IMG/VR virus record: IMGVR_UViG_3300029374_000315
Span: 17,327-81,326 of that record
Origin: a virus
DNA length: 64,000 nt
Strand: one strand, 5' to 3'
Part shown: positions 23,695 through 64,000 of the stretch, piece by piece
Layout: each line of letters opens with the position of its first letter
How positions within the stretch are numbered: position 1 is the first letter of the stretch
Made by a program: the position numbers and the translations under genes
Notes under the pieces: generated by a model
Database searches by the model: none
What the model saw: the letters and a program-made list of their open reading frames with translations, nothing else
What the model was told of the DNA's origin: nothing

Positions 23695-23801
23695 CGATCA
23701 TAGAATGGTTGCGTACCGTTTTGTTGATCTCCTTTGACTGCCACTATTATTCCCAGCTCGCCAGTGATGGTGCAGTAGTGCTTTGTAAGCTGGGTGATTA
23801 T

Positions 23802-47194: not shown

Positions 47195-47986
47195 ATGGTA
47201 GTTAAACTGATTACACATACTCCTGATCCTGAAAAAGTAGTAGCTGCCGCTGCAAAGCTGTGCTATTCCAATTCGAGTATTCAGGATTTGATGGATGGAC
47301 TGACCGATGAGAAGGTCGATGAGTTTCTGAATCGACTTTCTAGCCTTGGTCACGCCAGTCCTACTGAGCATGTGACTTTTACTTTTGGAATCGAAGGTGT
47401 GAGTCGTTCTTTGCTGGCACAGATCACCCGGCATCGCATTGCATCTTTCAGCGTACAGAGTCAGCGCTATGTGCGAATGAACAATGCGGAAATCGTGGTT
47501 CCTGATGTTATCGATGATGATAGCGAAGCACGAGAGGTATTTGAACAGGCGATTCAGACTGCTGAATATTCCTATAAACATCTGTGCCAGATTCTCGAAG
47601 ACAAGATTACTGAGGAATTGATGGTTGCCGATTCTCGCCTGACTGAGAAAAAGGCACGAGCAAAAGCATCAAAGATCGCAAATGAGAACGCGCGTGCTGT
47701 TCTTCCGAATGCTTGTTCTACTAAGATGATTGTTACAATGAACGCTCGTTCGTTGAATAATTTCTTTAACCTGCGTTGCTGCGAACGTGCACAGCCGGAA
47801 ATCAAAGAGCTTGCAACCGAGATGTTGAAGCTTGTCTATCCGATTGCTCCTCATCTATTTAAGTATGCTGGTCCAAATTGCTGTGGTAATGGTTGTACTG
47901 AAGGTATGATGTCTTGTGGTAAGTTCCACGAGATTCGTGATAAATACGACAAACTAAAACAGGAGGCTTTAAATGCAAACACTTGA
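47195..47986 (+). CDS. thyX: flavin-dependent thymidylate synthase
   Basis: ThyX signature RHRIASFSVQSQRY (RHRxxSxxxxSxR). Confidence 0.85.
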   Translation: MVVKLITHTPDPEKVVAAAAKLCYSNSSIQDLMDGLTDEKVDEFLNRLSSLGHASPTEHVTFTFGIEGVSRSLLAQITRHRIASFSVQSQRYVRMNNAEIVVPDVIDDDSEAREVFEQAIQTAEYSYKHLCQILEDKITEELMVADSRLTEKKARAKASKIANENARAVLPNACSTKMIVTMNARSLNNFFNLRCCERAQPEIKELATEMLKLVYPIAPHLFKYAGPNCCGNGCTEGMMSCGKFHEIRDKYDKLKQEALNANT

Positions 47987-48458
47987 CGAAATTAAGAAGA
48001 ACGTCGAGCACCCGTCTTATTACGGCGGTGCAGACAATCCCTATGAGGCTATCAAAGTGCTGCGAGAGTGGCAGTTAGACAAGGATGCTTATCTTTGGAA
48101 TGTTGGTAAGTATCTAAGCCGGGCAGGTAACAAAGATGGCAATTCTCAGCTTCAAGATTTGGCGAAGGCACGTTTTTATTTGGACCATAAAATCCGGCTT
48201 TTAGAGGAACAGCAGAAGGTTACTGAAAGTGTCGTAGATACGCTAAAGAAAGTTCCTAATGATGTTACTGATAAGTTAACTACGATGTCGGATTACGGAG
48301 ACGTATATATTCCTACTATTAGAAAGACAGTAAATGAATGCGTTCAGTATGTTCCTCGTCCTGATGATTCATTCAAAGAAAAGCTGGCAAAGGCAGAGCC
48401 GACGTGCAATATTGAGACTGCCGTGGTTCCTGATTATGCCGATGAGGTCAAGTTTTAA
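47973..48458 (+). CDS. DUF3310-like phage protein
   Basis: HPSYYGG..PYEAIKV...W..GKYLSRAG pattern typical of DUF3310 proteins. Confidence 0.4.
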   Translation: MQTLDEIKKNVEHPSYYGGADNPYEAIKVLREWQLDKDAYLWNVGKYLSRAGNKDGNSQLQDLAKARFYLDHKIRLLEEQQKVTESVVDTLKKVPNDVTDKLTTMSDYGDVYIPTIRKTVNECVQYVPRPDDSFKEKLAKAEPTCNIETAVVPDYADEVKF

Positions 48459-48544
48459 TGAGAAATGAAAACGATACATATTTAATTTTTGTTATATTTT
48501 TCTTCATTATAGTACCAGGACTTGCTTTGATGGCTTTTAGATGA
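48458..48544 (+). CDS. tiny hydrophobic peptide (28 aa)
   Basis: ATG overlapping upstream stop (TAATG); GAGGT RBS; YLIFVIFFFIIVPGLALMAF. Confidence 0.3.
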   Translation: MRNENDTYLIFVIFFFIIVPGLALMAFR

Positions 48545-48555
48545 GGTTTACATAA

Positions 48556-48651
48556 ATGAGAATGAGATACAACTGGGAAGAACCATATGCGGCATTTGCC
48601 CTGTTTGTTATAATGTTGTTTTTTGGCTTTGCCAAGTTTGTTTTAAAATAA
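48556..48651 (+). CDS. tiny hydrophobic peptide (31 aa)
   Basis: GAGGT RBS 9 nt upstream; AAFALFVIMLFFGFAKFVL TM segment. Confidence 0.3.
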   Translation: MRMRYNWEEPYAAFALFVIMLFFGFAKFVLK

Positions 48652-48666
48652 TCAAGGAGAAAATAC

Positions 48667-50190
48667 ATGAATATGATGTTTATTGCAGTTCCTGTCGTTG
48701 TTATCCTTTTGGTTGCCTTTGCATTTACTTGTTATAAGAAGGCTCCTCCGACTCAGGCAATCGTTGTGACCGGCTTTGGACTGTCTAAGCCGAAGGTTAT
48801 CTGTGGTCGTGGAGTGTTCGTCCTGCCTGTTATTCAGCGAGCTGATCGTCTGAATATGCGACTGCTCAAGATTGATGTCAAGACTCCTGAGACCGGTGTT
48901 AAGACTAAAGAGGGCGTTTCTTTGTGGTTGGACTCTGTTGTTACTGTTCAGGTTTACTCTGAAAACTCTACTGTAACTGATGAAGAAATCAAGAGTGCGG
49001 GCTGTGCAGATGCTAAAACCTATATCAGTGCCCGTCAGCAGGCTGCTATTTCTAACTTCCTTGGCATGAGTGAAGATGGTATCAACGAGAAGATTAACGA
49101 TGTCCTTCAGGGCAATCTGCGTGAGATTGTTTCCGAAATGACTGTCAACGACATTCTGACTAACCGTAAGCAGATGGCTATCTCTGTTGTTGAGAATGCT
49201 CGTCCTGATCTTGCAAAGATGGGTCTGGAGGTTGTTACCTTTAATGTTCAGGACATCAAGGATGCTATTGACGCTCAGGGTCATAATCACGGTGTCATCG
49301 AGGCAATTGGTGTTCAGCAGGAAGAACTGGTGAAGAAACAGGCTGAGATTGCCAAGGCAGAGGCAGCTCGTGATATTGCTCGCGCAAAGGCTGATACTGC
49401 CCGTGAAGCAAACGAGAAGGAAATTGAGTCCAAGACTGCTATCGCCCAGCGCAATAATGAGTATCTGCTGGCTCAGGCCGCTCTGAAGACTAAGGCTGAT
49501 AGGGCAAATGCTGATGCCGAGGCTGCTGGTCAGATTCAGATGAACCTTCGTGACAAGGAAATTAAGGAAGCTGAAGCCGATGCAGCTATTGCACAGCAGA
49601 AAAAGATGGTTGAATTGGCTGCTAAGGAAGCAGAAGTTCGCCAGCAGAAGCTGGATGCGGAAGTTCGTAAGCAGGCAGATGCCGATTTGTATAAGCGTCA
49701 GAAGGAAGCTGAAGCAAAGAAGTACGAAGCAGAGCGTTCTGCAGAATCTGCAAAGTTCGCCAAGGAACAGGAAGCAGAAGGCATCCGTATGGTTGGCATG
49801 GCAGAAGCTGAGGCCATCAAGCAGAAGGGTCTTGCTGAAGCAGAAGCTATGTTGAAGAAGGCTGAAGCTTACAAGCAGTACAATGGTGCGGCTATGGGTG
49901 AAATGATCATCAAGATTCTGCCTAACATCGCAGCTGAGGTTGCAAAGCCGCTGGCCTCCATCGATAAGGTTTCTATTATCGGCAGTAATGCAAATGGCGT
50001 TTCTGAGATTTCCGGTAATGTTCCGGCAGTAATGGCTCAGACCTTTGAGGCCGTTCGTGAAGCAACTGGCATCGATATGAAGGAAATTGTCCGTGCTAAC
50101 AGCTATGATGCAAAGGTTACTAAGAATGTGAATCTTGTGAGCGATTCTACGATTGTTTCTGAAAAGAACGATGCGCAGGATGCTGAGTAA
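48667..50190 (+). CDS. flotillin-like SPFH/band-7 domain protein
   Basis: N-terminal TM; SPFH core IVVTGFG...VLPVIQRADRLNMRLLKIDV; C-terminal EA-rich flotillin-type coiled coil. Confidence 0.8.
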   Translation: MNMMFIAVPVVVILLVAFAFTCYKKAPPTQAIVVTGFGLSKPKVICGRGVFVLPVIQRADRLNMRLLKIDVKTPETGVKTKEGVSLWLDSVVTVQVYSENSTVTDEEIKSAGCADAKTYISARQQAAISNFLGMSEDGINEKINDVLQGNLREIVSEMTVNDILTNRKQMAISVVENARPDLAKMGLEVVTFNVQDIKDAIDAQGHNHGVIEAIGVQQEELVKKQAEIAKAEAARDIARAKADTAREANEKEIESKTAIAQRNNEYLLAQAALKTKADRANADAEAAGQIQMNLRDKEIKEAEADAAIAQQKKMVELAAKEAEVRQQKLDAEVRKQADADLYKRQKEAEAKKYEAERSAESAKFAKEQEAEGIRMVGMAEAEAIKQKGLAEAEAMLKKAEAYKQYNGAAMGEMIIKILPNIAAEVAKPLASIDKVSIIGSNANGVSEISGNVPAVMAQTFEAVREATGIDMKEIVRANSYDAKVTKNVNLVSDSTIVSEKNDAQDAE

Positions 50191-50201
50191 GAGGTGATTA
50201 C

Positions 50202-53200
50202 ATGGAATATGTGATTAAACGCGATGGAACGAAAGTTCCTTTTGATAAAAGTAAGATTGTAAATGCAATCGAGAAGGCGATGAATGATTCCTCAGATCCT
50301 GTTGACCACAAGCTGAGTGATAGTATTGCATCGGAAATCGCAGCAATCGATTCTACTATGGATGTAGAAGCAATTCAGAATGCAGTTGAAAATCGCCTTA
50401 TGCAGAGTGGTTACTATGAGACAACTCGTTCTTATATGAACTATCGGTATCTGCATGGTATTGCTCGCAGCAACTACAAGGAGCTGATGGATGCGGTTGA
50501 AGAAAAACTTCTTGGCAAGAAGATTGATAATCAGAATGCCAATGTCGATGAAGCATCTTTTGGCGGTCGTATTGGCGAGATGAGCCGGGTGGTTTCCAAG
50601 CGATATGCTCTTGACTACTGTATGTCTAAGATGGCTCGTGAGAATCACGAGAACAATGAAATTTATATCCACGATCTCGATAGCTACGCAGTTGGTATGC
50701 ATAACTGCTACGATTCCGCTACAAAGTTTATTACTCAAACTGGTGTTAAGCGTTTTGGCGACTGTACCGATGGTCAAATTGTGTATGTTCTGGATAAGAA
50801 TGGCGAGTGGAGAAAAGCAACCGTTCATAAATATGGAAAGCAGAAAATGTATGAGTTGACTTTCAAAAGTAGCCTTACTACTAAAAAAGTCACATGTACT
50901 AGAAATCATCGTTGGGTTCTTGAAAATGGAGAGGTCACTGACAATATCAATATTGGAGATTCTTTGATTCTGACCACAAAAGTGCAAAATAAATATTCAT
51001 CCAATGATAGCTTGTGGTGTTTTGGTTTTGTTCTTGGAGATGGCGTTGACTTTTATATGAAGTCAAAGGATAAGAGCAGAATCACAAACAGCAGTATGCA
51101 GGTTCGTCTTTGTGGGCATAAAATTGAATATATCAATAAATTTTTGGATAATGGCTGGTCAAAAAGACAGACACACAAAAACGGAGATATCACATTGATT
51201 TCTCGTGGGAATGGTGCTTTTAAACAGGCGTTCTTGGATAATGAATTTTGGAAGATCATGTCATATGATGACCTGTGCAATATTTTTGAAGGTTACGTTC
51301 ATGCTGATGGACATTTTAGAGAAAATGGTTCAGTAATGCTGTCAACGTCTGATCCTCGAATGAAGCACTTTATTGAAGATGTGTCATCCGTTTGCGGCTA
51401 TTACATTTGGTCTGAAAATGAGAAATTTAATGACACAAATTTTAAGGATGGCAGAACCTTATACGAGTTTTATTTGGTAAAAGAGCAGTCTACGAAATGG
51501 ACTTTGCAAAGTATTGCGGCCAGCAGAGACGGCGATAATGGGTATAAAACTGCATGGTGTGTCGAGGAGCCCGTAACAAAAACGTTTATTCTTGATGGTT
51601 GTATGACTACAGGTAACTGTTTAAGTATCCCGTTTGATGACCTGCTTGCGAATGGTTTCAACACTCGCCAGACCGATGTTCGTCCTGCACAGTCCATCAG
51701 TACGGCATTCCAGCTTGTCGCAGTCATCTTCCAGATTCAAAGTCTTCAGCAGTTCGGCGGCGTGAGCGCAACACACCTAGACTGGACTATGGTTCCTTAT
51801 GTACGGAAGAGCTTTTCGAAGCATTTTAAAGATGGGATTAAATACATTAAGCCTGAAGATGACCCCAGCAGAGTACCCAAAGAATTATCTTTTAACGACC
51901 TAGAGGCTAATGATCCAAGGAATGCAAAAGTATATCAGTACGCAATGGATATGACCAAACGTGAGTTGAACCAAGCCGTTGAAGGCATGTACCATAATCT
52001 AAATACACTCCAATCACGTAGCGGAAATCAGCTTCCGTTCACGTCTATCAACTATGGCACATGTACGTTGCCTGAAGGCCGAATGGTTATCGAAGCATTG
52101 CTAAATGCTTCCATTAAGGGTATCGGCAAATTACATAGAACTAGCATTTTCCCTTGTGGTATTTTCCAGATGGCTAAGGGAATCAATCGTGCTCCCGGAG
52201 ACCCTAATTACGATATGTATCAGCTGGCACTGCGTTCCACTGCACAGCGTCTTTATCCTAATTATGCCAATGTCGATTGGAGCGGCAATGAAGGATACGA
52301 TAAAAATAATGTAAAAACGTATTTTTCGACGATGGGCTGTAGAACTGCAAATGGTTGGGATGTCAACGGCTTTGAGCAGTTGAAGGATGGCCGAGGGAAT
52401 ATCTGTCCTGTTACGATTATTCTTCCTACTCTTGCAATGGAAGCGAAGGAATATACCATTAAAAACGCTACTGGAGAAGACCTTGAAGGACAGACTGTAG
52501 CCAAGTTTATGTCCATTCTTGACCAGAAGTTGCATGAAGCAAAAGATATGCTGATTGAACGCTTCGAGTGGATTTGCTCTCAGTCTCCTGAGTCTGCAAA
52601 ATTCATGTGGGAGAATGGAACAATGGCCGGATATGACGGAAAAGATATTCGTTCCGCTCTGAAACATGGCACGTTGGCTGTTGGTTTGCTCGGCATGGCT
52701 GAAACTCTTCAGATTTTGATTGGAGAAGATCAAACTTGTGATAATGGCCTTGAGCTTGCAAAGAAAATTTGTCAGCTCTACAAAGATCGCTGCGACGAAT
52801 TCAAGCACAAGTATTCTCTAAATTTTGGCGTGTACTTTACGCCCGCAGAAAACCTTTGTTTTACTGCCATGCAGAGATTTAAGGCAAAATATGGTGATAT
52901 TAAAAACGTTTCAGACAAAGAGTTTTTCACTAACAGTGTCCATGTTCCGGTATGGCGAGAAGTGACACCGTTTGAAAAGATCGATATTGAGTCTCAGCTT
53001 GACGGATATTCAAGCGCAGGCTGCATCGCGTATGTAGAGCTCGACTCGACTGTAAAGAATAATCTCGGTGCGCTGGAAACAATTGTGAACTATGCAATGG
53101 ATCATGACATTCCGTATTTTGCAGTGAATGTTCCAAATGATACCTGTATGGAATGCGGTTATTGTGATGAGATTGGTGATACTTGCCCTGAGTGTGGAAG

Positions 53201-53324
53201 TCATAATATTCGGCGTCTTCGTCGTGTGACGGGCTATCTCACGGGCGATTACACTACAGCTTTCAATCTTGGTAAGCAGCAAGAAGTTGAGCTTCGTGTT
53301 AAGCACAATCGAGTGATTCATTAA
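50202..53324 (+). CDS. nrdD: anaerobic ribonucleoside-triphosphate reductase (class III, NrdD) containing an intein
   Basis: N-terminal ATP-cone; C-terminal Zn ribbon CMECGYC..CPECG and glycyl-radical motif RRVTGYLTGD; 285-aa insertion with Hint and LAGLIDADG blocks. Confidence 0.85.
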   Translation: MEYVIKRDGTKVPFDKSKIVNAIEKAMNDSSDPVDHKLSDSIASEIAAIDSTMDVEAIQNAVENRLMQSGYYETTRSYMNYRYLHGIARSNYKELMDAVEEKLLGKKIDNQNANVDEASFGGRIGEMSRVVSKRYALDYCMSKMARENHENNEIYIHDLDSYAVGMHNCYDSATKFITQTGVKRFGDCTDGQIVYVLDKNGEWRKATVHKYGKQKMYELTFKSSLTTKKVTCTRNHRWVLENGEVTDNINIGDSLILTTKVQNKYSSNDSLWCFGFVLGDGVDFYMKSKDKSRITNSSMQVRLCGHKIEYINKFLDNGWSKRQTHKNGDITLISRGNGAFKQAFLDNEFWKIMSYDDLCNIFEGYVHADGHFRENGSVMLSTSDPRMKHFIEDVSSVCGYYIWSENEKFNDTNFKDGRTLYEFYLVKEQSTKWTLQSIAASRDGDNGYKTAWCVEEPVTKTFILDGCMTTGNCLSIPFDDLLANGFNTRQTDVRPAQSISTAFQLVAVIFQIQSLQQFGGVSATHLDWTMVPYVRKSFSKHFKDGIKYIKPEDDPSRVPKELSFNDLEANDPRNAKVYQYAMDMTKRELNQAVEGMYHNLNTLQSRSGNQLPFTSINYGTCTLPEGRMVIEALLNASIKGIGKLHRTSIFPCGIFQMAKGINRAPGDPNYDMYQLALRSTAQRLYPNYANVDWSGNEGYDKNNVKTYFSTMGCRTANGWDVNGFEQLKDGRGNICPVTIILPTLAMEAKEYTIKNATGEDLEGQTVAKFMSILDQKLHEAKDMLIERFEWICSQSPESAKFMWENGTMAGYDGKDIRSALKHGTLAVGLLGMAETLQILIGEDQTCDNGLELAKKICQLYKDRCDEFKHKYSLNFGVYFTPAENLCFTAMQRFKAKYGDIKNVSDKEFFTNSVHVPVWREVTPFEKIDIESQLDGYSSAGCIAYVELDSTVKNNLGALETIVNYAMDHDIPYFAVNVPNDTCMECGYCDEIGDTCPECGSHNIRRLRRVTGYLTGDYTTAFNLGKQQEVELRVKHNRVIH
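50763..51617 (+). other. intein with LAGLIDADG homing-endonuclease domain inside nrdD
   Basis: Starts CTDGQIVYVLDKNG (block A), then TCTRNHRW (block B), LAGLIDADG-like LWCFGFVLGDGVDFY and IFEGYVHADGHF, ends ...FILDGCMTTGN followed by Cys+1. Confidence 0.75.
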
Positions 53325-53354
53325 CGTGTGAGTTGTGGGTTGGTGGGATTACAT

Positions 53355-53432
53355 ATGAAAGAAATTATTGTTTTCTTTGTGATTGTATGGGTTATCGCCT
53401 ATTACATTTTAAAAGATAACTACAAAGATTGA
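53355..53432 (+). CDS. tiny hydrophobic peptide (25 aa)
   Basis: GGTGGGA RBS; MKEIIVFFVIVWVIAYYIL; not in ORF track. Confidence 0.3.
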   Translation: MKEIIVFFVIVWVIAYYILKDNYKD

Positions 53433-53442
53433 GGAGATATTT

Positions 53443-54294
53443 ATGAAGAAATTTATGGCAATTTTTGTTGCATTCCTCGTTGCGGTTGGCGCAGTGCTTT
53501 GTACCGAGCGAGTACATACTGGTTATGTTGGTGTTGTTTATTCCGCAAAGGGTGTCGAGCAGCAAACTATTTCTCAGGGCTGGCATTTTATGAGCCCTCT
53601 GAAGCATGTGTCTGAGTTCCCGATTACTCAGCAGCGAGTAGTCTTTTCTAATGCTCCGTCCGATTATGGCGCAAAGGAACACGCAGATTGGCACATTGAT
53701 GCTCCTGCTAATGGCGGTACGATTGCAATCAACCTGACTGTCAATTATAACTTCCTGCCGGAGCATGTTGTTGAACTGTACACCAAGTTTGGTGGTATGG
53801 ACGGTGAGAGCCTGATGGAGAGCAAGATCCAGAACGATATTATTGCTTACGTCAAGGAAGTTACTCCTCAGTTCAGTGTCATGCAGATTTATTCTGATGA
53901 TCGCGCAGGTGTTAATACTGCAATCACCAACTATTTGAATGAGAGGCTGACCGCAGAGTATGGAATCAATGTCTCTTCCGCACTGATTGTTGACGCACAG
54001 CCTGATGATACCCTGATGCAGAAGATTCGTGCCAAGGAGCAGGCAAAGCAGGATGCAGAGATTGCAGAGCTGAATAAGCAGACCGCTCTGGCTCAGGCAG
54101 AGACTGATAAAGTTAAGGCACAGACGGAAGCTGACGTTAAGATGATCGAAGCACAGGCCGAGGCTGATGCAAACAAGGTACTCTCGGAGTCTATTACTCC
54201 TGAACTGATTCAGATGAAGGAAGCAGAAGCTCGTCTGAAGCATGGTTGGGTCACCGTTCAGGGTGCAGATACAGTCGTCACCAAGGGTGAGTAA
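53443..54294 (+). CDS. SPFH/band-7 (prohibitin/HflK-like) membrane protein
   Basis: N-terminal TM; SPFH core GYVGVVYSAKG...GWHFMSPL; C-terminal coiled coil. Confidence 0.7.
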   Translation: MKKFMAIFVAFLVAVGAVLCTERVHTGYVGVVYSAKGVEQQTISQGWHFMSPLKHVSEFPITQQRVVFSNAPSDYGAKEHADWHIDAPANGGTIAINLTVNYNFLPEHVVELYTKFGGMDGESLMESKIQNDIIAYVKEVTPQFSVMQIYSDDRAGVNTAITNYLNERLTAEYGINVSSALIVDAQPDDTLMQKIRAKEQAKQDAEIAELNKQTALAQAETDKVKAQTEADVKMIEAQAEADANKVLSESITPELIQMKEAEARLKHGWVTVQGADTVVTKGE

Positions 54295-54308
54295 ATGAGG
54301 CTTTAAAA

Positions 54309-54479
54309 ATGAAAATTTTCGCAAATATCTTAGGATTTATTTTATCCTGGTTTATCACAGTCCTTATTCTCTACGGTGTTTGGAAAATGCTTGGGCCAAA
54401 TTTTAGACTGTGGGTTGCAAGTGGAGTCTGGTTAGTTCTACTTGTGTTTGGAGGTTTTAAAACTAACAAGAGTCAATAA
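54309..54479 (+). CDS. small two-TM membrane protein (56 aa)
   Basis: ANILGFILSWFITVLILYGVW...ASGVWLVLLVFGG; hand-translated. Confidence 0.35.
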   Translation: MKIFANILGFILSWFITVLILYGVWKMLGPNFRLWVASGVWLVLLVFGGFKTNKSQ

Positions 54480-54659
54480 ATAAACAAGCAGGGTGGGTGT
54501 GGTGGCATAAAAACATGGATGTGAAACGTATACGTCAGTTGATTCTCGAAATCATTCGAGCCATACAACAAGCGAACAATATTAGTCAAAATGAAATGGA
54601 AGATATTATTTCTGATGTTGAGTTTGATTTTTATAACGGTCGATAAAGAAAGGAGTCTT

Positions 54660-54836: not shown

Positions 54837-54837
54837 G

Positions 54838-55685: not shown

Positions 55686-55713
55686 TAAAAGTGCCGTTTT
55701 GTGAGGTAAATAT

Positions 55714-56733: not shown

Positions 56734-56951
56734 AGAACACAAAACCGGATGCGCTTTCTAAAATAATTGGTTCTATCGTATTAGTGACATCCCTATGGTG
56801 TATGACAAAGATACGCACGTTATGTATTACTTATTCAGTAAATACTTCGGAAATCAAGGCTACGGCTATATGTCTCCTTATTATAATGAGCACGGTCAGA
56901 TGTGCTATTACGTTGATGGTCAGATTATTCCTGTCGAGGAGGTGCTAATCG

Positions 56952-57152
56952 ATGCTGACTGAGATTGCTTGGCTTATGACCAAGGCTTATATTATTTTGA
57001 TTTTCACCGCAGCAACAATTCGCTCTGAGCAGATTCTGTATGATGCCTCTACATATATTTTTCGAGGTGATAAGAAAAATGGAATGTATGGCTGCATTGC
57101 GCTGAATATTTTTATCATCGTATGTGCAAGTATGTGGATGAGGTTTATTTAA
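56952..57152 (+). CDS. small membrane protein (two TM segments)
   Basis: AWLMTKAYIILIFTAA and CIALNIFIIVCASMWM hydrophobic helices. Confidence 0.4.
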   Translation: MLTEIAWLMTKAYIILIFTAATIRSEQILYDASTYIFRGDKKNGMYGCIALNIFIIVCASMWMRFI

Positions 57153-57153
57153 G

Positions 57154-57822
57154 ATGGGATATTTTGAAGATTATAGCTGGTGTGAACCAGAGGCAGAGTC
57201 TCAGGCTGACCAAATTGTATCTAGTGCAATTGAGCAACTAAAAAATCTTGTTTCTGATAGCGCTAAGACTACCATGAAAGAATATCAAGACTTGGAAACG
57301 AGAAAAATTAAACTTCAGCGTGAAGTCAATGAGCTTGAATACAAAAAACATAAGTCCGAAGAAGAACTTAAAGACCAGATTGCTTTATATAAGCGAATGG
57401 ACGAACATGATTTGCCAAAAGGCTTTGTAAATAAAATCGTTGGTGCGTTGATTGGTGATTTCAAAATTGGAGACGATGCTTGGACAATAGAAGCTAAGTA
57501 TAAGAGTTACGAGTGTCCATTATGTCATGGGAAAGGAGTTGTCTCTACAAAAATCAATGGAAGCATAGACCGTGATATTAAATGTCCTGAATGTAACGGA
57601 TATAAAAGAGTCTCAAATCTTTCCTACTATGCACAAAAAAGAAAGATTGCAAGATTTGATATAAGGCTTAATTTTAATAATCTTAACCAAATGTGGGTAG
57701 CCGACGAAGATCACATTATTTTTTGCGACGGAGATTATAACAGGTATGCAAATGGCCTTTATAAAACTGAGCAGGAAGCAATCGATGCAGCTGCTAAGAA
57801 GAACGCAGAGGTGAGTAAGTGA
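57154..57822 (+). CDS. hypothetical protein with CxxC..CxxC zinc ribbon and coiled coil
   Basis: CPLCHG...CPECNG; 222 aa. Confidence 0.55.
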   Translation: MGYFEDYSWCEPEAESQADQIVSSAIEQLKNLVSDSAKTTMKEYQDLETRKIKLQREVNELEYKKHKSEEELKDQIALYKRMDEHDLPKGFVNKIVGALIGDFKIGDDAWTIEAKYKSYECPLCHGKGVVSTKINGSIDRDIKCPECNGYKRVSNLSYYAQKRKIARFDIRLNFNNLNQMWVADEDHIIFCDGDYNRYANGLYKTEQEAIDAAAKKNAEVSK

Positions 57823-58373
57823 ATTACGCTAAAATTATTCCATGTGATATAGCAAATGGCGAAGGGGTGCGCGTCACATTGTTCGTACAGGGTTGTGACC
57901 ATCACTGCCACGGCTGTCAGAATCCTGCTACATGGGACCCGAATGGCGGTCAGCCATTCACGGATGAAACGCTTGATAAAATTGTAGATTTACTTCGACC
58001 TGATTATATTCAGGGGCTTACGCTTACTGGTGGAGATCCACTATATCCAGAGAACAGGGAAATGATTTGCAAAATTCTAATAAGAGTCAGACACGAGTTT
58101 GAAGGAAGCAAAGACATTTGGATGTGGACAGGATATACATGGGAAGAATTGATTCAACAGGCGGCAGAAGAATTGAAATATCAAACTATTCCGACAACGG
58201 TAACAATTATTCGAAACATAAACGTGCTAGTCGATGGTCCATATATCGAATCTAAACGAGATATCTCTTTGCCGTACATGGGGAGTTCCAATCAACGTGT
58301 AATCGGCTGTAATAAGAGTTTTGCTTTACGAAGACCAGTCCTTTGGTGGACTCCAGAAGAGAAAGGAAAATAA
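57819..58373 (+). CDS. nrdG: anaerobic ribonucleoside-triphosphate reductase activating protein (radical SAM)
   Basis: FVQGCDHHCHGCQNP matches NrdG CxxxCxxC cluster; GLTLTGGDP. Confidence 0.8.
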   Translation: MNYAKIIPCDIANGEGVRVTLFVQGCDHHCHGCQNPATWDPNGGQPFTDETLDKIVDLLRPDYIQGLTLTGGDPLYPENREMICKILIRVRHEFEGSKDIWMWTGYTWEELIQQAAEELKYQTIPTTVTIIRNINVLVDGPYIESKRDISLPYMGSSNQRVIGCNKSFALRRPVLWWTPEEKGK

Positions 58374-58374
58374 T

Positions 58375-58905
58375 ATGGATTTAGGAAATTACGAAAAGTT
58401 CCCGGATTGCGATTCTTTTACTACTATTTACCATCCAAACATTAAAATCAATAAACTGCACGAAGATGCTCATCTGCCGACTTATGGTTCTAAAAATGCT
58501 GCTTGCGCAGACCTTTATGCCTATATCGGTTTTGATGACGCAACGATGGTAAACAAGAATGGTGATCGCTGCATTATGATTCAGCCACATGAGACCGTTA
58601 AGGTACATACTGGTTTACGGATGGCTCCGCCGGAAGGTTGGTATGTCGCTATCTATGCTCGCAGCGGTTTGGCAACTAAGTTGGGACTTGCTCCTGCAAA
58701 CAAAACTGGCATTTGCGATCAGGATTACCGTGGAGAGTATATTGTAGCACTACATAATCATTCTAATATCCCTCAAATGATTACTCACGGTGACCGCATT
58801 GCTCAGATGGCGGTTGTTCCGTTCTGGCAGGCTGATTTTGAAGAAGTTTCCGAATTGGACGAAACTGAGCGTGGAGCCGGAGGGTTTGGGAGTTCTGGAA
58901 AGTGA
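58375..58905 (+). CDS. dut: dUTP diphosphatase
   Basis: dUTPase motifs YARSGLA, GICDQDYRGEY, GDRIAQ, ERGAGGFGSSG. Confidence 0.85.
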   Translation: MDLGNYEKFPDCDSFTTIYHPNIKINKLHEDAHLPTYGSKNAACADLYAYIGFDDATMVNKNGDRCIMIQPHETVKVHTGLRMAPPEGWYVAIYARSGLATKLGLAPANKTGICDQDYRGEYIVALHNHSNIPQMITHGDRIAQMAVVPFWQADFEEVSELDETERGAGGFGSSGK

Positions 58906-58912
58906 GGATACT

Positions 58913-59236
58913 ATGAAAGTATTTCACAAAGAATGTGATGGGAATACGGTTGGTTTTGCCTGTGTTGTTGATGGGGAGAATTTTATCGAAAAACGGTTTT
59001 CCTCGGAAAAAGAGACTTTAATGTATTGTATGGCATTGGAAGACCTTGGATATAAAGAAGTAGACGCGATTTTTCTATGTGCGTGGAACAAAGAAAAGTT
59101 GGCAAGAGAAGATCTTGAGAAAATTTGTAATGAGCGTGAAAGCTTTCAGAAAAGATTATTCTGTGCAACGCAAAAATTTTCAGAAGCTAGTAATGAGTTC
59201 GAGAAACATAAAGAAAGATATAATATCACAGAGTAA
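58913..59236 (+). CDS. hypothetical protein
   Basis: ATG after GTGAGGA. Confidence 0.45.
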   Translation: MKVFHKECDGNTVGFACVVDGENFIEKRFSSEKETLMYCMALEDLGYKEVDAIFLCAWNKEKLAREDLEKICNERESFQKRLFCATQKFSEASNEFEKHKERYNITE

Positions 59237-59249
59237 AGGAGAAATAATT

Positions 59250-59576
59250 ATGGCTAAGTATTTTTATGTTTATCACGTTAACGATGGCACCACTGATTGC
59301 ATCGTAAAGATGTTCAACACTGACTCTGTTGTCAACGGCAAAAGGGGTACTTATATCGCTGAGAAAAAGGTTGCATCCAGTGATCTGCAGGGCTTTACCA
59401 GTGGTATCAAGGCGGCAGGTTTTCAGCTGAATCAGGAACTCGCAAATGCTGATACTGCCGAACAGGAAGCAAAACGAATTCTGGCAGCTAAGATAGCCGA
59501 TTATCATGCCGCACGCGACGCATATACTGAGGCTGCCGATAATCTGAAAAAGGTAAACGCCAAGTTTGGTATCTGA
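59250..59576 (+). CDS. hypothetical protein
   Basis: ATG after AAAGGAGAAA. Confidence 0.5.
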   Translation: MAKYFYVYHVNDGTTDCIVKMFNTDSVVNGKRGTYIAEKKVASSDLQGFTSGIKAAGFQLNQELANADTAEQEAKRILAAKIADYHAARDAYTEAADNLKKVNAKFGI

Positions 59577-59612
59577 TACATAATCGCAGTGGTGGGTGGG
59601 AGGAATAAATAT

Positions 59613-59858
59613 ATGAAACGGAATGTTACAATAAATCAGACTCAAATTTGTAATTGCGATAACTGTACTCAAATTGGAATCATTCACAATGATGAAGCAT
59701 ATGTCATGCAAACAAGTTCTCCGAAAAGAGAAGGCCCAGCGGAATTTACATGCAGTATGCCTGAACAGAAACATTATTTAAAAAACATCCTTTACAAGAT
59801 TATAGAAAAACTAAATAGTCTTATTGGATGGACTATAGATGCGTTTAACGATATTTGA
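59613..59858 (+). CDS. hypothetical Cys-containing protein
   Basis: ATG after GGGAGGAA; CNCDNC. Confidence 0.45.
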   Translation: MKRNVTINQTQICNCDNCTQIGIIHNDEAYVMQTSSPKREGPAEFTCSMPEQKHYLKNILYKIIEKLNSLIGWTIDAFNDI

Positions 59859-59871
59859 TTAAGGAGGTTGT

Positions 59872-60090
59872 ATGAAAGCACATATTCAAGAAGAAAAGAA
59901 AACAGCTACATTAGAACTTGGCAAAGGAACGCTGTATCAAAATAAAGACGGCAAAATTTACAAGGTTTGCGACACAGAAGAATACAACAAGACGTATACT
60001 GACGATGAGATTATCAAGGTTGCTCTATCAGAAGAAAATATGATTCATGCGACGAACTTTTTTAACACACAGTTTGTATTTGCAGATTGA
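59872..60090 (+). CDS. hypothetical protein
   Basis: AAGGAGG RBS. Confidence 0.5.
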   Translation: MKAHIQEEKKTATLELGKGTLYQNKDGKIYKVCDTEEYNKTYTDDEIIKVALSEENMIHATNFFNTQFVFAD

Positions 60091-60101
60091 GGTGAAATGC
60101 T

Positions 60102-60335
60102 ATGATTATGGTTGTTCAACACAAAGGGACTCCAAAGAAAAAGAGATACGCTGCAAAATTTTCGTGCCAATGCGGATGTATATTTTGGGCTGATGACAAA
60201 GATATTAAACTTCCGAGTTATTCCGTTATACGAGAATACGCACCAGGCGTAAAACTGGCAAAATGTCCAGAATGCGGAGAACAAGTCGTTTCTTGTTTTC
60301 CAGCAGTTCCAAGAGAAAAGATTTTTGTGGATTGA
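60102..60335 (+). CDS. zinc-ribbon protein, paralog A
   Basis: CQCGCIFWADD...CPECGEQ. Confidence 0.5.
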   Translation: MIMVVQHKGTPKKKRYAAKFSCQCGCIFWADDKDIKLPSYSVIREYAPGVKLAKCPECGEQVVSCFPAVPREKIFVD

Positions 60336-60343
60336 GGTGCACG

Positions 60344-60643
60344 ATGGCTGTACGAATTGAAGTTCATGGTAAAGAAAGAGAAAAAATAAAATACTCAGTA
60401 GAGTTTAGATGCTCTAGCTGCGGTTGTGAGTTTTGGGTGGATGCAGATTCTCTCGGAGAGTTCAAGCCAGCCAATTATTGTGATTTAAAGTATAACTGCC
60501 CTGAATGTGGTTCTAGTTCTTATCCGGTTGATATTATGGAGAACAGCCGTATCTTTAGTGAGCACAAGTTGGAACCTGTGTTTTGGCAGATTATCGAATC
60601 TCCGTTTCATCGGTATTGCAGAATTTGCGATAAAGAAAAATAA
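60344..60643 (+). CDS. zinc-ribbon protein, paralog B
   Basis: CSSCGCEFWVDAD...CPECGSS; same architecture as 60102..60335. Confidence 0.5.
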   Translation: MAVRIEVHGKEREKIKYSVEFRCSSCGCEFWVDADSLGEFKPANYCDLKYNCPECGSSSYPVDIMENSRIFSEHKLEPVFWQIIESPFHRYCRICDKEK

Positions 60644-60712
60644 TATGCCAAAGCAAGCTTAATTTCAAGAATGTATGTTTTAAGAACTAGACTTTTATAA
60701 GGTGGTAAGAGT

Positions 60713-61204
60713 TTGACTAAGCAAATAGGCTATTATAAATCTGACTGGTACATTATGGGCATCGACGGAAAATATAACAACGCCTGTATCTCACATACAG
60801 AATCGCAGCTTCGATATACAGCTCCAAGGTCGCCAGAATGGACCATCAATGGATTGAGTTTTACTTACCTTAGAGAACATGGATTTGAAGATTATCCTGA
60901 ACTCTATGGTATTGTATTCTATGATATGGAGTGGTGGCGACGAAAACGCTATCCGGGTGACTTTTATGTAGAGATACCAATTTGCGATTTGTGTGCAGAT
61001 GCCTTTCATTTAAAATGGTGTTGTAAGGAATTTCGTGTACATCAGTGGTCTAACTTGAGGAAAGAAACAAAGTGGGTGAAAGGTAGAAGTAACTACACTA
61101 TTTGTGAGCTCGCCCATAAATTACCACATGAAGAGTTTGTTGAGTATTTGAAAGACAACGACATCTATATTGTAAATGAAAGTGGTGTTGAACTTGGATG
61201 GTAA
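60713..61204 (+). CDS. hypothetical Cys-containing protein
   Basis: 163 aa. Confidence 0.5.
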   Translation: MTKQIGYYKSDWYIMGIDGKYNNACISHTESQLRYTAPRSPEWTINGLSFTYLREHGFEDYPELYGIVFYDMEWWRRKRYPGDFYVEIPICDLCADAFHLKWCCKEFRVHQWSNLRKETKWVKGRSNYTICELAHKLPHEEFVEYLKDNDIYIVNESGVELGW

Positions 61205-61601
61205 TAACGAAAAACTCACTCTTGGAGAAAAGATCTTGCTTTTGACAGTCGGTGTGTTCATTACTTTTATTGTTGGATATTTTGTATGGGCGATTGGCGA
61301 CGGTATCTATCGTCATTATAATCCGATTGAGTGGACTGCCATTATTGAAGAACTGGAACCGGGCATCTACGGATATACATCTACTATGGTATCTAATGTT
61401 CCAGCAGAAAATTACGAGATGCTTACGGTTCTTTGCAATGGCACTTATATGAATATCAAAGGACATGTAAAAGTTGTATATGATAGCAACGCTCCATATA
61501 TCGAATATAAGTCAACCAATACTGTTAATGCTGACTCTGTAATAATTCATGTTCAAAAAGGACAGATAAAAAATAATGGAGTTAGTACAGTAACGAGGTG
61601 A
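61176..61601 (+). CDS. membrane-anchored hypothetical protein (start uncertain, possibly TTG ~61236)
   Basis: TM helix ILLLTVGVFITFIVGYFVWAIG; frame overlaps the end of the upstream gene. Confidence 0.4.
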   Translation: MKVVLNLDGNNEKLTLGEKILLLTVGVFITFIVGYFVWAIGDGIYRHYNPIEWTAIIEELEPGIYGYTSTMVSNVPAENYEMLTVLCNGTYMNIKGHVKVVYDSNAPYIEYKSTNTVNADSVIIHVQKGQIKNNGVSTVTR

Positions 61602-61804
61602 TTCTTATGAAAGAATTAGGGTTTTATAAAGACCAAACAGAATATTACAAAAGATCAATCGAATATCTACTGCACCATTATACTGATAGCTGTGGCATGT
61701 GTACGGCTAATTTAGATTGCAGTGAATGCGTTGTGAATGATTTTATCAATCAGCTACGAAATATTCTGTATAGTAGCAGCGAATATAAAGGAGAACATCG
61801 ATGA
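61598..61804 (+). CDS. hypothetical Cys-containing protein
   Basis: 68 aa. Confidence 0.45.
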   Translation: MILMKELGFYKDQTEYYKRSIEYLLHHYTDSCGMCTANLDCSECVVNDFINQLRNILYSSSEYKGEHR

Positions 61805-62199
61805 AAGAACTTGGATATTATATTATCTCTGCTGACTTATGTGGCATTGCTCCATACCGTAGAGAAATCTTTTATAAAAAAACTTTGCTACAATACGTTG
61901 AGAAGAATTCGATTGAAGAATATTCAGTAAAATTTTATAACAGAGATGGAGCTGGACGGCCAAGTTGGATAGGGGAGACAATTAAAAATCATTTTTATGT
62001 TACTATCCCGAATGTCGGTGGGCACTCTGAGACGGTAAAAATTAAAAGAAATAGTGACAGTTATATCGAACTGAAGAAACAATTTCGATACGTCTCTCCG
62101 AATAAAGTATCTACTGCGGAAATTATGCACGACTTATCTTTTGAGGAATTTTTAGAACTTGCACGAGATATGGGTTGCGATATCACTAAACGACCTTGA
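61801..62199 (+). CDS. hypothetical protein
   Basis: 132 aa. Confidence 0.5.
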   Translation: MKELGYYIISADLCGIAPYRREIFYKKTLLQYVEKNSIEEYSVKFYNRDGAGRPSWIGETIKNHFYVTIPNVGGHSETVKIKRNSDSYIELKKQFRYVSPNKVSTAEIMHDLSFEEFLELARDMGCDITKRP

Positions 62200-62231
62200 T
62201 AAAACTTGGATTTTAAAGAAAGGAGAGTTCG

Positions 62232-63164
62232 ATGCTTGTAAAAGATTACGGCGGTGAAATCGATTGGAATATCGGCGCGTTTTGCGGCCATGATGAAATG
62301 ATGTTTGATATTGACAAAGCTTGTAAAATGGCTTGTGAGAAAAATGGCATCAGATATGTGTTTGGCAGCATTTCCACAGTCTTGCAGGGTGGTCGTATCC
62401 CTCAGCAAAATCTTCCTGTGTCAGAAGTCTTATCCAGAGCAGATAAGTATAATGAACTTGGTCTTGGAGTTCGCCTGACATTCTCAAGTCCGTTTGTTAC
62501 ACGCGGCGATCTCGTTGATGAAACTTCAAATATTATGTTGCGGCACCTCGATCATAATAATCAGAATGGTCTTATAAACCGTAACGGCGTTATTGTTATG
62601 TCCGATTTACTTGCTGATTATATTCGCTACATGTATCCCAATCTTGAGCTGATTTCTTCGCAAGTAAAACCGTCTGTCGAAGTCGGTCTTGGGAATGATT
62701 CTGCTGAATATTATAACCGTCTGCTTGACCGTTTTGATATTGTCGTTGTGAATCCATTTAAGATCCATGACGAGCAGTTTATTAAAAACCTGCATGACCA
62801 TGATCGAGTAGAATTTATTGTCAATCACCGGTGTCTGCCGAATTGTCCCATGGCTGGCCGTCACTATCAGCTGAACACAAAGCTGGGTCAGGCTATTGTC
62901 AATGGTGATGATATTACGGAGCTGCAAAATCAGTTGGCGATAGTATATAACTATTGCGGCTCTACTCGAAATAGCAATCCTCTTCTGGGTACATCTATGA
63001 ATGAAGATGAAATAAAAATGTTGGTTTCACAGGGGTTTAAGCATTTTAAAATCGAAGGCCGCGAAAATAATATCATCTCGTTTGTGCGTGACCTTGGTGA
63101 TTATGTTTTTAATCACGAGATATTCGAGAGAGTCATTCATGCCATTACCGGTATGATGCTGTAA
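62232..63164 (+). CDS. hypothetical protein (310 aa; weak resemblance of EFIVNHRCLPNCPMAG to the peptidase-U32-family Cys signature)
   Basis: AAGGAGAG RBS; long ORF; motif match tentative. Confidence 0.5.
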   Translation: MLVKDYGGEIDWNIGAFCGHDEMMFDIDKACKMACEKNGIRYVFGSISTVLQGGRIPQQNLPVSEVLSRADKYNELGLGVRLTFSSPFVTRGDLVDETSNIMLRHLDHNNQNGLINRNGVIVMSDLLADYIRYMYPNLELISSQVKPSVEVGLGNDSAEYYNRLLDRFDIVVVNPFKIHDEQFIKNLHDHDRVEFIVNHRCLPNCPMAGRHYQLNTKLGQAIVNGDDITELQNQLAIVYNYCGSTRNSNPLLGTSMNEDEIKMLVSQGFKHFKIEGRENNIISFVRDLGDYVFNHEIFERVIHAITGMML

Positions 63165-63175
63165 GGAGGTTCACA

Positions 63176-64000
63176 ATGATTATTGATTGCAAATCTATTG
63201 CACAAGATATCAAAAATAAAATCAAGAATATTATCGCAGAAGCTAACGATGCTCCTGTTTTATATATTTATCAAGTAGGGGATAACCCTGCATCCAACGC
63301 TTACATTCGCGGCAAGCTGCGTGACTGTGAAGAGGTTGGAATCGAAGCAGAACTTATCAAATTACCAGAAGAGATAACCGAAGATGGTTTGAAAGATAAA
63401 ATACAAGAAGATTATAATTATGAAAACGCAGATGGTATTATCGTCCAGCTTCCACTGCCAAAACATATCGATCCTAAGAATATCATTATTCCAGACGAAC
63501 TTGACGTTGATGGTTTTAATTCTACATCCAAATTTCAGCCATGTACTCCGCTTGGCGTTATGAAGATTTTTGATTCCATCGGGTACGATCTGGATAGCAA
63601 AAATGTGCTTGTGTGTGGTCAATCTGATATCGTAGGTCGTCCGCTGGTCGATATGCTGATCGGGAGACACTGTAATGTGATCTCTGTTAATAGTACAGGG
63701 AGCTACATGAAGAATACTGCTTACGTTACAAAACTAGCAAATGTTGTCATCTCTGCGGTTGGAAAACGCAATTTTATTTCTCATATAGATCTATTCAACA
63801 CAGACGTCTGCATTGACGTTGGTATTAACTACGACGAGAATGGCAAGCAACATGGAGACTGCGCTGATGAGGTTTACAACATGAAAGATATTATGGTGAC
63901 CCCTCGTATCGGAGGTGTCGACCTTATGACCAGGGCGATGCTCTTATATAATGTGTGCGTGTCACGATACGGGTCGGAGAAGATGGAGGAGATTCTATGA
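63176..64000 (+). CDS. folD: bifunctional 5,10-methylene-tetrahydrofolate dehydrogenase/methenyl-THF cyclohydrolase
   Basis: FolD signatures GIIVQLPLPKH, LDVDGF, PCTPLG, GQSDIVGRP; stop at window end. Confidence 0.85.
   Translation: MIIDCKSIAQDIKNKIKNIIAEANDAPVLYIYQVGDNPASNAYIRGKLRDCEEVGIEAELIKLPEEITEDGLKDKIQEDYNYENADGIIVQLPLPKHIDPKNIIIPDELDVDGFNSTSKFQPCTPLGVMKIFDSIGYDLDSKNVLVCGQSDIVGRPLVDMLIGRHCNVISVNSTGSYMKNTAYVTKLANVVISAVGKRNFISHIDLFNTDVCIDVGINYDENGKQHGDCADEVYNMKDIMVTPRIGGVDLMTRAMLLYNVCVSRYGSEKMEEIL

Follow-up and report, generated by a model that had tools for sequence, protein, structure and literature searches.

The 64,000-nucleotide stretch of viral DNA analyzed here (IMG/VR record IMGVR_UViG_3300029374_000315, positions 17,327 to 81,326; hereafter, the window) ends with a gene for a FolD-like methylene-tetrahydrofolate (CH2-THF) dehydrogenase/methenyl-THF cyclohydrolase. 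Upstream of it are encoded a flavin-dependent thymidylate synthase (ThyX), a class III anaerobic ribonucleotide reductase (RNR) with its activase (NrdD and NrdG) and a trimeric dUTPase (Dut). On the evidence presented below, we lean toward the view that this FolD is part of a conserved set of DNA-precursor enzymes and would serve one-carbon metabolism during lytic growth of the phage. All five identifications had been proposed in an earlier reading of the DNA without database searches (the sequence-only reading), and profile searches (PF02511, PF00763/PF02882 and TIGRFAMs models) together with motifs bore them out. The five genes lie on the + strand, as do all sizeable open reading frames (ORFs) of the window, and GC skew is positive from end to end. 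As a whole, the window constitutes the early/replication arm of a temperate phage with a large genome (roughly 100 to 150 kb) of ~40% GC, and its ThyX-to-FolD region is perhaps best read as the distal part of a long co-directional early/replication gene array in this AT-rich genome.

The arrangement of these genes differs from that first described. The "one block" of the sequence-only reading is apt for a single co-directional early array and inapt for a compact cluster, the five enzyme genes being dispersed over 17 kb among ORFs of unknown function. FolD is not next to ThyX but 15.2 kb and ~27 predicted ORFs away, with a DUF3310 gene, two SPFH/flotillin genes and a run of small ORFs without family assignment among those in between. 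Nor is the module self-contained, as the window encodes no GlyA or Fhs, so that regeneration of CH2-THF depends on host enzymes.

FolD retains the motifs and fold of its superfamily

The FolD ORF is intact, the window ending exactly with its stop codon. Both Pfam domains were detected far above their cut-offs (PF00763, 98.2 bits versus 32.8; PF02882, 118.6 bits versus 27), PHROG 7320 was matched with an E value of 4e-59, and the protein is ~35% identical to solved FolDs. In alignment with the Escherichia coli enzyme, the catalytic residues are kept as Y43/K47 (Y50/K54 in E. coli), Q91 (Q98) and D112 (D121), as are PCTP and the dinucleotide loop GxSxxVGxP (GQSDIVGRP, residues 148 to 156). The catalytic Lys and Asp and the dinucleotide-binding motif, whose loss the sequence-only reading had named as grounds for dropping the assignment, are thus all in place. 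Residues that discriminate NADP from NAD are ambiguous: Gln replaces Arg after the first Gly of the loop, and Ser173, which aligns with the usual serine of CHS(K/R)T, is kept.

Relatives of this FolD were abundant in human-gut assemblies, with hundreds of near-identical proteins and 84 to 95% identity among the 120 matches listed. The motifs YxxxK, QLPLP, DVDG, PCTP and GxSxxVGRP were each present in 107 to 120 of these 120 close homologs. They also occurred in 117 to 121 members of a diverse set made of the 122 closest representatives of 240 to 300 amino acids, taken from 1.84 billion proteins clustered at 50% identity. An AlphaFold2 (AF2) model built from a 64-sequence alignment reached a mean predicted local distance difference test (pLDDT) score of 92.1 and a predicted template modeling (TM) score of 0.91. 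When this model was compared with the PDB using Foldseek, all of the top 50 matches were FolD or MTHFD1/2 proteins (TM scores of 0.81 to 0.90). Finally, when the window gene was compared with 21 relatives of equal length, the median ratio of nonsynonymous to synonymous substitution rates was ~0.12, indicating that the family is maintained as a protein under purifying selection. Judging from these features, the enzyme has most likely kept the ability to convert CH2-THF, methenyl-THF and 10-formyl-THF into one another with NAD(P)(H).

FolD is recurrently linked to genes for DNA-precursor synthesis

We surveyed 87 loci carrying this FolD, taking 10 kb upstream of each; below, L-numbers designate sampled loci or contigs with FolD and P-numbers designate FolD protein representatives. 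The gene set proposed by the sequence-only reading recurred in part: NrdG and Dut were found upstream of FolD in 86 of the 87 loci, with order and strand conserved, and within the same 10 kb NrdD was found in 49 and ThyX in 27. As these loci represent one phage family, the linkage of NrdG and Dut mainly reflects stable inheritance. Median identities to the window proteins were 84% for FolD, 82% for Dut and 70% for NrdG; where NrdD and ThyX were detected, the values were ~29% and 32%, respectively. The family is mosaic, the reductase and thymidylate synthase having evidently been exchanged around a conserved FolD and integration end.

Independent support for a link between FolD and nucleotide genes came from distant FolDs of the same subtype (37 to 47% identity). 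L096 (logan SRR28199064_4304) carries ThyX and, further along, a guanylate kinase (GK)/NT5C fusion, FolD, an NrdD gene split by an HNH gene, NrdG and a formate/nitrite transporter homolog, in this order. The order FolD-ThyA-GK/NT5C-NrdD-NrdG was found in L144, L154, L171 and L182, followed by Dut except in the truncated L154; in these lineages FolD directly adjoins a thymidylate synthase gene (ThyA), which it does not in the window. FolD was also located a few kilobases from NrdD and NrdG in L105/L106, L129/L130, L132/L134 and L146, and Enterococcus phage EF1 carries ThyA, dihydrofolate reductase (DHFR) and FolD all inside 5 kb. When the sampled FolDs were grouped at 70% identity, NrdD/G genes were found within 10 kb in 6 of the 19 clusters and a detectable thymidylate synthase in 3. 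The link between FolD and genes for dTMP and deoxynucleoside triphosphate (dNTP) synthesis is therefore recurrent, not obligatory.

In L096, the Form_Nir_trans homolog (positions 10558 to 11160) immediately follows NrdG. Its placement hints at a formate-centered anaerobic dNTP module.

FolD marks the integration end of a prophage of a gut anaerobe

Contigs extending beyond FolD placed it at the edge of an integrated phage. In L001, FolD is followed by an excisionase (Tn916-Xis/HTH_17), a tyrosine integrase, and then ABC-transporter and other cellular genes. In contigs of 104 to 109 kb, FolD, xis and int are followed by an AcrVA2-like gene and then, in the opposite orientation, by genes for lysis and tail proteins. 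At least 145 IMG/VR contigs carry this FolD; most are 100 to 150 kb long, and FolD lies 1 to 2.5 kb from the trimmed end. The phage DNA has 39 to 41% GC versus 58% in the host flanks of L001 and L006. The latter is a contig of a metagenome-assembled genome (MAG) named "uncultured Faecalibacterium sp.," with the prophage junction inside it. Only one other FolD locus was found in a scan of genome contigs, on a 3.6-kb contig binned as Bacteroidales that we judged uninformative. The host is thus probably a GC-rich, strictly anaerobic gut Firmicute, Faecalibacterium, an assignment that is not firm and draws on one MAG junction and the GC content of the flanks. The anaerobic host proposed by the sequence-only reading is well supported by this junction, by the oxygen-sensitive glycyl-radical RNR and by the fecal sources. 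No common attachment site could be defined for L001 and L006, whose host flanks share no sequence.

No close cultured relative of the phage exists. A megablast search of the 16.8-kb region against deposited phages returned no annotated relative, two short fecal-metagenome fragments being matched, and the best match of the window's Pol III alpha was a 47% identical protein of Clostridium phage Amboise. The window also carries seven tRNA genes, which is consistent with an AT-rich phage (~40% GC) making up for codon-usage differences from its host (~58% GC).

Composition varied along the phage and its surroundings. Positions 1 to 19000 of the window hold ~60 dense, small + strand ORFs (50 to 120 amino acids) with 36 to 39% GC and a GC skew of 0.25 to 0.32, a composition different from that of the replication module that follows (41 to 48% GC). 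In the chromosomal contigs L002 and L004 (303 and 496 kb), no integrase follows the 40% GC FolD arm; from ~11.3 kb onward, holin, endolysin and tail genes of ~61% GC lie on the opposite strand. This stretch is either a neighboring resident prophage or a sign that the phage is a compositional chimera.

A candidate route from ribonucleotides to thymidylate

Class III reductases such as NrdD are activated by NrdG and use formate as the reductant in the E. coli and T4 enzymes, and ThyX converts dUMP to dTMP with CH2-THF and NADPH and releases THF, so that DHFR is not needed. From the observed gene identities, motifs, fold, synteny, purifying selection and prophage position we predict the following route, including the activity of FolD, the timing of its expression and the direction of its flux. 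NrdD activated by NrdG would reduce ribonucleoside triphosphates to dNTPs without oxygen, the dUTPase would convert dUTP to dUMP, and ThyX would methylate dUMP to dTMP using CH2-THF and NADPH. The DUF3310 protein, apparently translationally coupled to ThyX, might then phosphorylate dTMP to dTDP. FolD would draw on both co-substrate pools of ThyX, CH2-THF and NADP(H), and during lytic replication could equilibrate the one-carbon-folate pool as the AT-rich phage genome replicates in its GC-rich host. In the reductive direction, it would turn 10-formyl-THF derived from formate by host Fhs into CH2-THF; in the oxidative direction, it would turn serine-derived CH2-THF into 10-formyl-THF for purines and yield NADPH. 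The difference between the phage (~60% A+T) and its host (~42% A+T) plausibly provides a rationale for a boosted supply of dTTP and dATP. The sequence-only reading asserted a flux that serves thymidylate synthesis. The protein sequence is compatible with both directions, and the neighboring ThyA/ThyX and Dut genes and the formate-transporter homolog of L096 modestly favor thymidylate supply.

Several observations weigh against this assignment of FolD to a lytic DNA-precursor set. Host GlyA can recharge THF from serine without FolD, which is therefore not strictly needed for a thymidylate cycle. FolD lies 15 kb from ThyX, 13 of the 19 short-linker FolD clusters had no detected Nrd gene within 10 kb, and FolD of the L109 type sits among genes for a UvrD helicase, a class-V aminotransferase, an HNH endonuclease, a macro-domain protein and a methylase fragment. 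The spot beside xis and int often holds lysogenic-conversion genes. At the protein level, the NCBIfam FolD cut-offs were missed (best score of 188 bits versus 333 to 559, with 30 models matched); as these models are lineage-specific, this indicates divergence and not exclusion from the superfamily. The region expected to bind the 2'-phosphate reads GQS...NSTG, in a loop with a pLDDT of 65, and with a noncanonical C-terminal signature and nine fewer linker residues, the activity and cofactor preference of the enzyme are predictions only. Moreover, a Gly249Asp change in the window copy may be harmful and leave it weakened or inactive.

If FolD instead ran oxidatively, from CH2-THF to 10-formyl-THF, it would feed purine synthesis or formylation and generate NADPH, and it would compete with ThyX for CH2-THF. 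The usual genomic context of bacterial FolD points this way, as exemplified by the long-linker P0151 in a purC-F-M-N-H-D operon, and for many short-linker FolDs of phages, the neighboring 10 kb contain no thymidylate synthase. AT-rich phages also require additional dATP, and the NADPH obtained is what ThyX consumes. However, no purine-biosynthesis genes were found beside the sampled phage FolDs, whose neighbors are ThyA/ThyX, dUTPase, NrdD and NrdG and the kinase/5'-nucleotidase fusion, and the L096 formate/nitrite transporter fits conversion of formate to CH2-THF at least equally well. We regard a purine-directed role as possible and rather unlikely.

FolD could also be a moron-like lysogenic-conversion gene that boosts or backs up host one-carbon metabolism outside the lytic dNTP program. 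It is the final phage gene ahead of xis, int and the host junction, a typical position for cargo, and its identity across the group (80 to 95% at the amino acid level, versus ~25 to 38% for ThyX and NrdD) suggests an independently retained cassette. The gene immediately upstream is variable as well, being orf310, orf132 or an ORF of 158 amino acids. However, FolD is co-oriented and tightly packed with the early array (gaps of 11 to 37 nt, with 32 nt before orf310 and 11 nt before FolD), and no terminator-like site was seen from position 61710 to FolD. A promoter and terminator scan found no more sites than in shuffled sequence and no convincing FolD-specific promoter or upstream terminator. 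In lambdoid phages, xis and int likewise stand at the end of the early operon. This tight spacing suggests that FolD would be co-transcribed with early lytic genes, and the same FolD subtype occurs inside lytic nucleotide-metabolism clusters of other lineages. A lysogenic-conversion role is accordingly the least probable of the explanations considered, and we continue to favor membership of the DNA-precursor set.

The window copy carries a Gly249Asp change

The window FolD gene differs from that of IMG/VR contig L012 by a sole nucleotide, at position 63921, which changes Gly249 to Asp in the motif GGVG(L/P)MT. This region reads PRIGGVGLMT in 117 of the 120 closest homologs and PRIGGVGLTT in one. 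Asp was found at this position in none of the 87 related loci, all of which have Gly, and in none of the 118 motif-bearing homologs; Gly occupies the column in 119 of the 122 diverse representatives. The signature P-G-G-V-G-P-[MF]-T (PROSITE THF_DHG_CYH_2) is matched neither by the family (IGGVGLMT) nor by the window (IGGVDLMT). The GGVG motif lines the cofactor/folate cleft of FolD, and an Asp within it is probably damaging.

These findings raise the alternative that the FolD of this genome was recently inactivated or is decaying, or that the difference is a base-call error, the gene set functioning without FolD in the former case. The near-invariance of Gly at this column and the fact that the change is the sole difference from L012 speak for it, and truncated orf310-FolD fusions (P0123 and P0348, described below) indicate that the locus does undergo rearrangement. 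Against it, the ORF is full-length with no further change, and the region is still confidently modeled by AF2, a method that is, however, insensitive to point mutations. One missense change alone is also insufficient to call the gene inactivated. We consider loss of function in this copy a serious possibility that falls somewhat short of the favored reading, in which FolD contributes to the DNA-precursor set.

A short-linker FolD subtype found in phage contexts

The window protein belongs to a FolD subtype defined by a shortened segment between DVDGF and PCTP, 8 residues long versus 17 in canonical FolD. Members are ~260 to 280 amino acids long, ~10 to 15 residues shorter than the canonical enzyme, and most bear the C-terminal signature (P/I)GGVGL(M/L)TR versus PGGVGPMT(V/I), with Leu in place of Pro in 85 of the 122 diverse representatives. 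The short linker itself was found in 87 of these 122. A motif-based scan further identified 394 IMG/VR contigs that encode relatives.

Every informative short-linker context sampled looks like phage or prophage. P0125 lies in the order cell-wall hydrolase-FolD-unknown ORF-Xis-integrase, and P0127 is the FolD of the L096 cluster. P0128 shares its contig with YonD/YonG genes of the SPbeta type, P0145 lies among small ORFs and a gene for single-stranded DNA-binding protein, and P0150 among small ORFs and DUF3310. Look-ups for P0138, P0134, P0160 and P0163 were uninformative, their contigs being 1 to 2 kb long. P0151, the long-linker cellular relative mentioned above, is found at the end of its purine operon. 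FolDs of the deposited phages compared here were of both kinds: those of EF1, Wolbachia phage WO and LR745206 (a 635-kb uncultured phage) have linkers of 17 to 20 residues and PGGVGP[ML]T, that of MT835745 is short-linker as in the window, and those of Lak-B6 and MT835478 have PGGVGPMT with a linker that could not be typed by pattern.

Tentatively, then, short-linker FolD may form a distinct, largely phage-restricted clade that diversified in phages of anaerobic Firmicutes and was repeatedly recruited beside class III RNR and thymidylate synthase genes and, in one of the lineages sampled, a formate transporter gene. We would not yet bet on this proposal, and the restriction to phages is a hypothesis drawn from a small sample of contexts. 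A literature search for short-linker phage FolD found no description, its incomplete coverage making this no evidence of novelty.

Other genes of the ThyX-to-FolD region and the replication module

Coordinates and supporting matches of the features discussed are collected in Table 1. ThyX matched PF02511 over its full length (E value of 9e-69, 231 bits) and TIGR02170 with 192.5 bits versus a cut-off of 87.9, and its RHRxxSxxxxSxR motif, beginning at residue 79, reads RHRIASFSVQSQR. The ORF that follows, which overlaps the ThyX stop by 14 nt, was considered as the MazG of the sequence-only reading; this was rejected, as the domain search gives DUF3310. Its match to PHROG 236, annotated as nucleotide kinase (E value of 9e-22), and 39% identity to the C-terminal 70 amino acids of T7 gp1.7 (pairwise E value of 1e-5) indicate that it is possibly a gp1.7-like nucleotide (dTMP/dGMP) kinase.

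The NrdD precursor has 1,040 amino acids, or 736 after predicted intein splicing. It matched PF13597 (E value of 2e-142), the ATP-cone and Gly_radical domains, and TIGR02487 (460 bits versus a cut-off of 326), and it ends in a four-Cys ribbon (CxxC...CxxC, CMECGY...CPECG) and the glycyl-radical motif RVTGY. In BLASTP comparison with the intein-less NrdD of L002, the alignment was broken precisely between MHN and C. The intervening intein begins with Cys, ends in Gly-Asn (Gly, not His, being penultimate) and is followed by Cys at +1. It contains two LAGLIDADG motifs, GFVLGDG and GYVHADG, the Pfam match to LAGLIDADG_3 being weak (E value of 0.089). By this prediction, the intein must splice if NrdD is to work as a continuous polypeptide. 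Relatives have NrdD genes that are intein-less (709 amino acids), encode 1,002 amino acids or are split (546 + 532 amino acids), and that of L096 is split by an HNH gene, making NrdD a hotspot for selfish elements. NrdG scored 176.7 bits with TIGR02491 versus a cut-off of 126.1, and its CxxxCxxC cluster motif reads CDHHCHGC.

Two SPFH membrane proteins bracket the anaerobic RNR gene, unusual neighbors for nucleotide metabolism. The 283-amino-acid SPFH gene was detected in 19 of the 87 loci within reach. The flotillin-like gene was detected in one of 87, a count that is uninformative because the gene lies 13 to 14.5 kb upstream of FolD and the loci reach 10 kb. In L002 and L004, a DUF3310 gene stands immediately 5' of NrdD and flotillin is absent there; the flotillin-like gene thus appears to be a variable accessory gene.

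The dUTPase probably starts at the ATG at position 58375. It matched PF00692 (E value of 2e-20), TIGR00576 (134 bits versus a cut-off of 102.6) and PHROG 135 (E value of 3e-56), and the five trimeric-type motifs were recognized by eye as AACADL, ARSG, GICDQDYRG, RIAQ and RGAGGFGSSG.

The upstream hydrolases that the sequence-only reading added to the module fared unevenly: the metallophosphoesterase was confirmed, the HAD-like protein is plausible on its DxDGT motif and PHROG matches with a Pfam score under the cut-off, and MazG is indicated only by weak PHROG matches, Pfam and NCBIfam searches of that ORF having given no match. Across this trio (35301 to 37133), the PHROG matches were 1649, 24386/1238 and 4856, and the genes lie within the replication module, which encodes RecJ, a Pol III alpha-type polymerase, a RecD/Dda-like helicase and DNA ligase.

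Immediately upstream of FolD, orf310 is an accessory gene present in 30 of the 87 FolD-family loci. It had no above-cut-off match in Pfam, PHROG or NCBIfam, only a weak one to PF01136 (E value of 0.077) on the motif KIEGR, and three of its homologs have a precomputed PF01136 assignment. The AF2 model (pLDDT of 95) had one strong PDB match, the U32 "peptidase" Mk0906 (5d88, E value of 1e-7). C201, C205 and KIEGR are invariant in the family, members of which occur in gut contigs, and the window has Thr at the nearly invariant Cys49. The protein is thus a TIM barrel distantly related to the "peptidase U32" family. A methylenetetrahydrofolate reductase-like folate enzyme was considered and rejected, the matches to that reductase being of the generic TIM-barrel kind (TM scores of 0.40/0.24) and U32 the only strong one. 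P0123 and P0348 (243 amino acids) each contain an orf310 fragment, 95% and 87% identical, respectively, over about one-quarter of orf310, to which P0123 adds 167 residues from the C terminus of FolD and P0348 the PF02882 C-terminal domain of FolD. Both represent variants of the orf310-FolD junction, formed by deletion and fusion, that occur in some assemblies.

Table 1. Features of the window discussed in the text, in order of position
Feature	Position	Strand	Basis
tRNA cluster, n = 7 (Leu-CAA, Leu-TAA, Pro-TGG, Gln-TTG, Leu-TAG, Gly-TCC, Met-CAT)	23001-24140		
HAD-like protein	35301-35648	+	DxDGT motif, PHROG matches; Pfam Hydrolase E 0.015, under cut-off
Metallophosphoesterase	35821-36579	+	Metallophos E 2e-12; PHROG match
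Weak MazG-like protein	36810-37133	+	PHROG 4856 E 1e-6, PHROG 2245 E 6e-5
ThyX, flavin-dependent thymidylate synthase, 263 aa	47195-47986	+	PF02511, TIGR02170, PHROG 85
DUF3310 protein, 161 aa	47973-48458	+	PF11753 37 bits vs cut-off 24; PHROG 236
Flotillin-like SPFH membrane protein, 507 aa	48667-50190	+	Band_7 E 8e-20; Flot E 5e-8
NrdD, class III anaerobic ribonucleoside-triphosphate reductase, N-terminal ATP-cone	50202-53324	+	PF13597, TIGR02487
Predicted in-frame intein, 304 aa, LAGLIDADG homing-endonuclease domain, NrdD aa 169-472	50706-51617	+	BLASTP and motifs
SPFH/Band 7 membrane protein, 283 aa	53443-54294	+	Band_7 E 6e-23; PHROG 200 E 3e-54
NrdG, radical-SAM activase of NrdD, 184 aa	57819-58373	+	Fer4_12 E 3e-48; TIGR02491
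Trimeric dUTPase, 176 aa from ATG 58375	58375-58905	+	PF00692, TIGR00576, PHROG 135
orf310, ~310 aa uncharacterised TIM-barrel protein	62232-63164	+	AF2 model; ends 11 nt upstream of FolD
FolD-like methylene-THF dehydrogenase/methenyl-THF cyclohydrolase, short-linker type, 274 aa, complete	63176-64000	+	Pfam, PHROG, fold
Single-nucleotide difference, A vs G in L012, Gly249Asp in GGVG(L/P)MT	63921	+	Comparison with IMG/VR contig L012

Relation to known systems and significance

The canonical bacterial FolDs (E. coli 1B0A/5O28; Campylobacter jejuni 3P2O) share with the window protein the two-domain fold (TM scores of 0.82 to 0.89), the Pfam domains and the catalytic motifs. They differ from it in sequence (~35% identity), in linker length (17 versus 8 residues), in the C-terminal signature (PGGVGPMT[VI] versus IGGVGLMTR, IGGVDLMTR here) and in context, which is pur or housekeeping for the bacterial genes and a prophage for the window gene. 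Phage sets of the T4 td/frd/nrd/dut type, like the class III RNR genes of phages that infect anaerobes, raise dNTP supply with the phage's own RNR, thymidylate synthase and dUTP-removing enzyme. The window set brings the same three functions, but all in anaerobic or flavin-dependent versions (NrdDG and ThyX), with no DHFR, dispersed over 17 kb and in a temperate phage. Large temperate Firmicute phages of the SPbeta-like group encode a Pol III alpha-type polymerase of their own and carry RNR genes with inteins or introns. The window phage is likewise large and temperate, with a Pol III alpha-type polymerase and an intein in its RNR, and the P0128 contig carries the YonD/YonG genes noted above.

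Annotated phage FolDs (Enterococcus phages EF1/EF5/VRE9/H1, Lak megaphages and Fusobacterium phage FNU1; PHROG 7320) likewise accompany thymidylate synthase. They are only 32 to 38% identical to the window protein, and those of EF1, WO and LR745206 are long-linker; the phages that carry annotated FolDs are virulent or mega-sized and have ThyA and DHFR, whereas the window phage is temperate and has ThyX. The sequence-only reading called FolD uncommon in phages, and in deposited genomes this is so, tblastn having found it in 54 of 50,697 phage records. Its novelty was overstated, as FolD has a PHROG family and annotated phage members and is a frequent auxiliary metabolic gene (AMG) of the gut: K01491 (FolD), ThyX and ThyA are all reported to rank in the top 50 AMGs by frequency in gut viral operational taxonomic units (PMC11938785), and FolD is listed for Fusobacterium phage FNU1 (PMC6591296). 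The general idea of a phage with FolD alongside RNR and thymidylate synthase is thus on record; we found no description of the short-linker subtype or of its apparent confinement to phages.

Phage enzymes for nucleotide precursors are textbook knowledge, and to these the present finding adds a documented example and no new principle. It comes from a very widespread family of AT-rich prophages of roughly 100 to 150 kb in a key GC-rich lineage of gut commensals, where the supply of dTTP and dATP is plausibly limiting. The short-linker FolD that these phages carry is, in the contexts sampled, phage-only and often wired to anaerobic dNTP genes. If it is indeed a phage clade and has altered kinetics or cofactor use, for example, favoring the reduction of one-carbon units from formate into thymidylate, it would represent a virus-specific rewiring of the folate cycle and not a borrowed host gene. 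Should the subtype prove biochemically distinct, it would offer a way to study how viruses of anaerobes direct one-carbon units among formate, thymidylate and purines.

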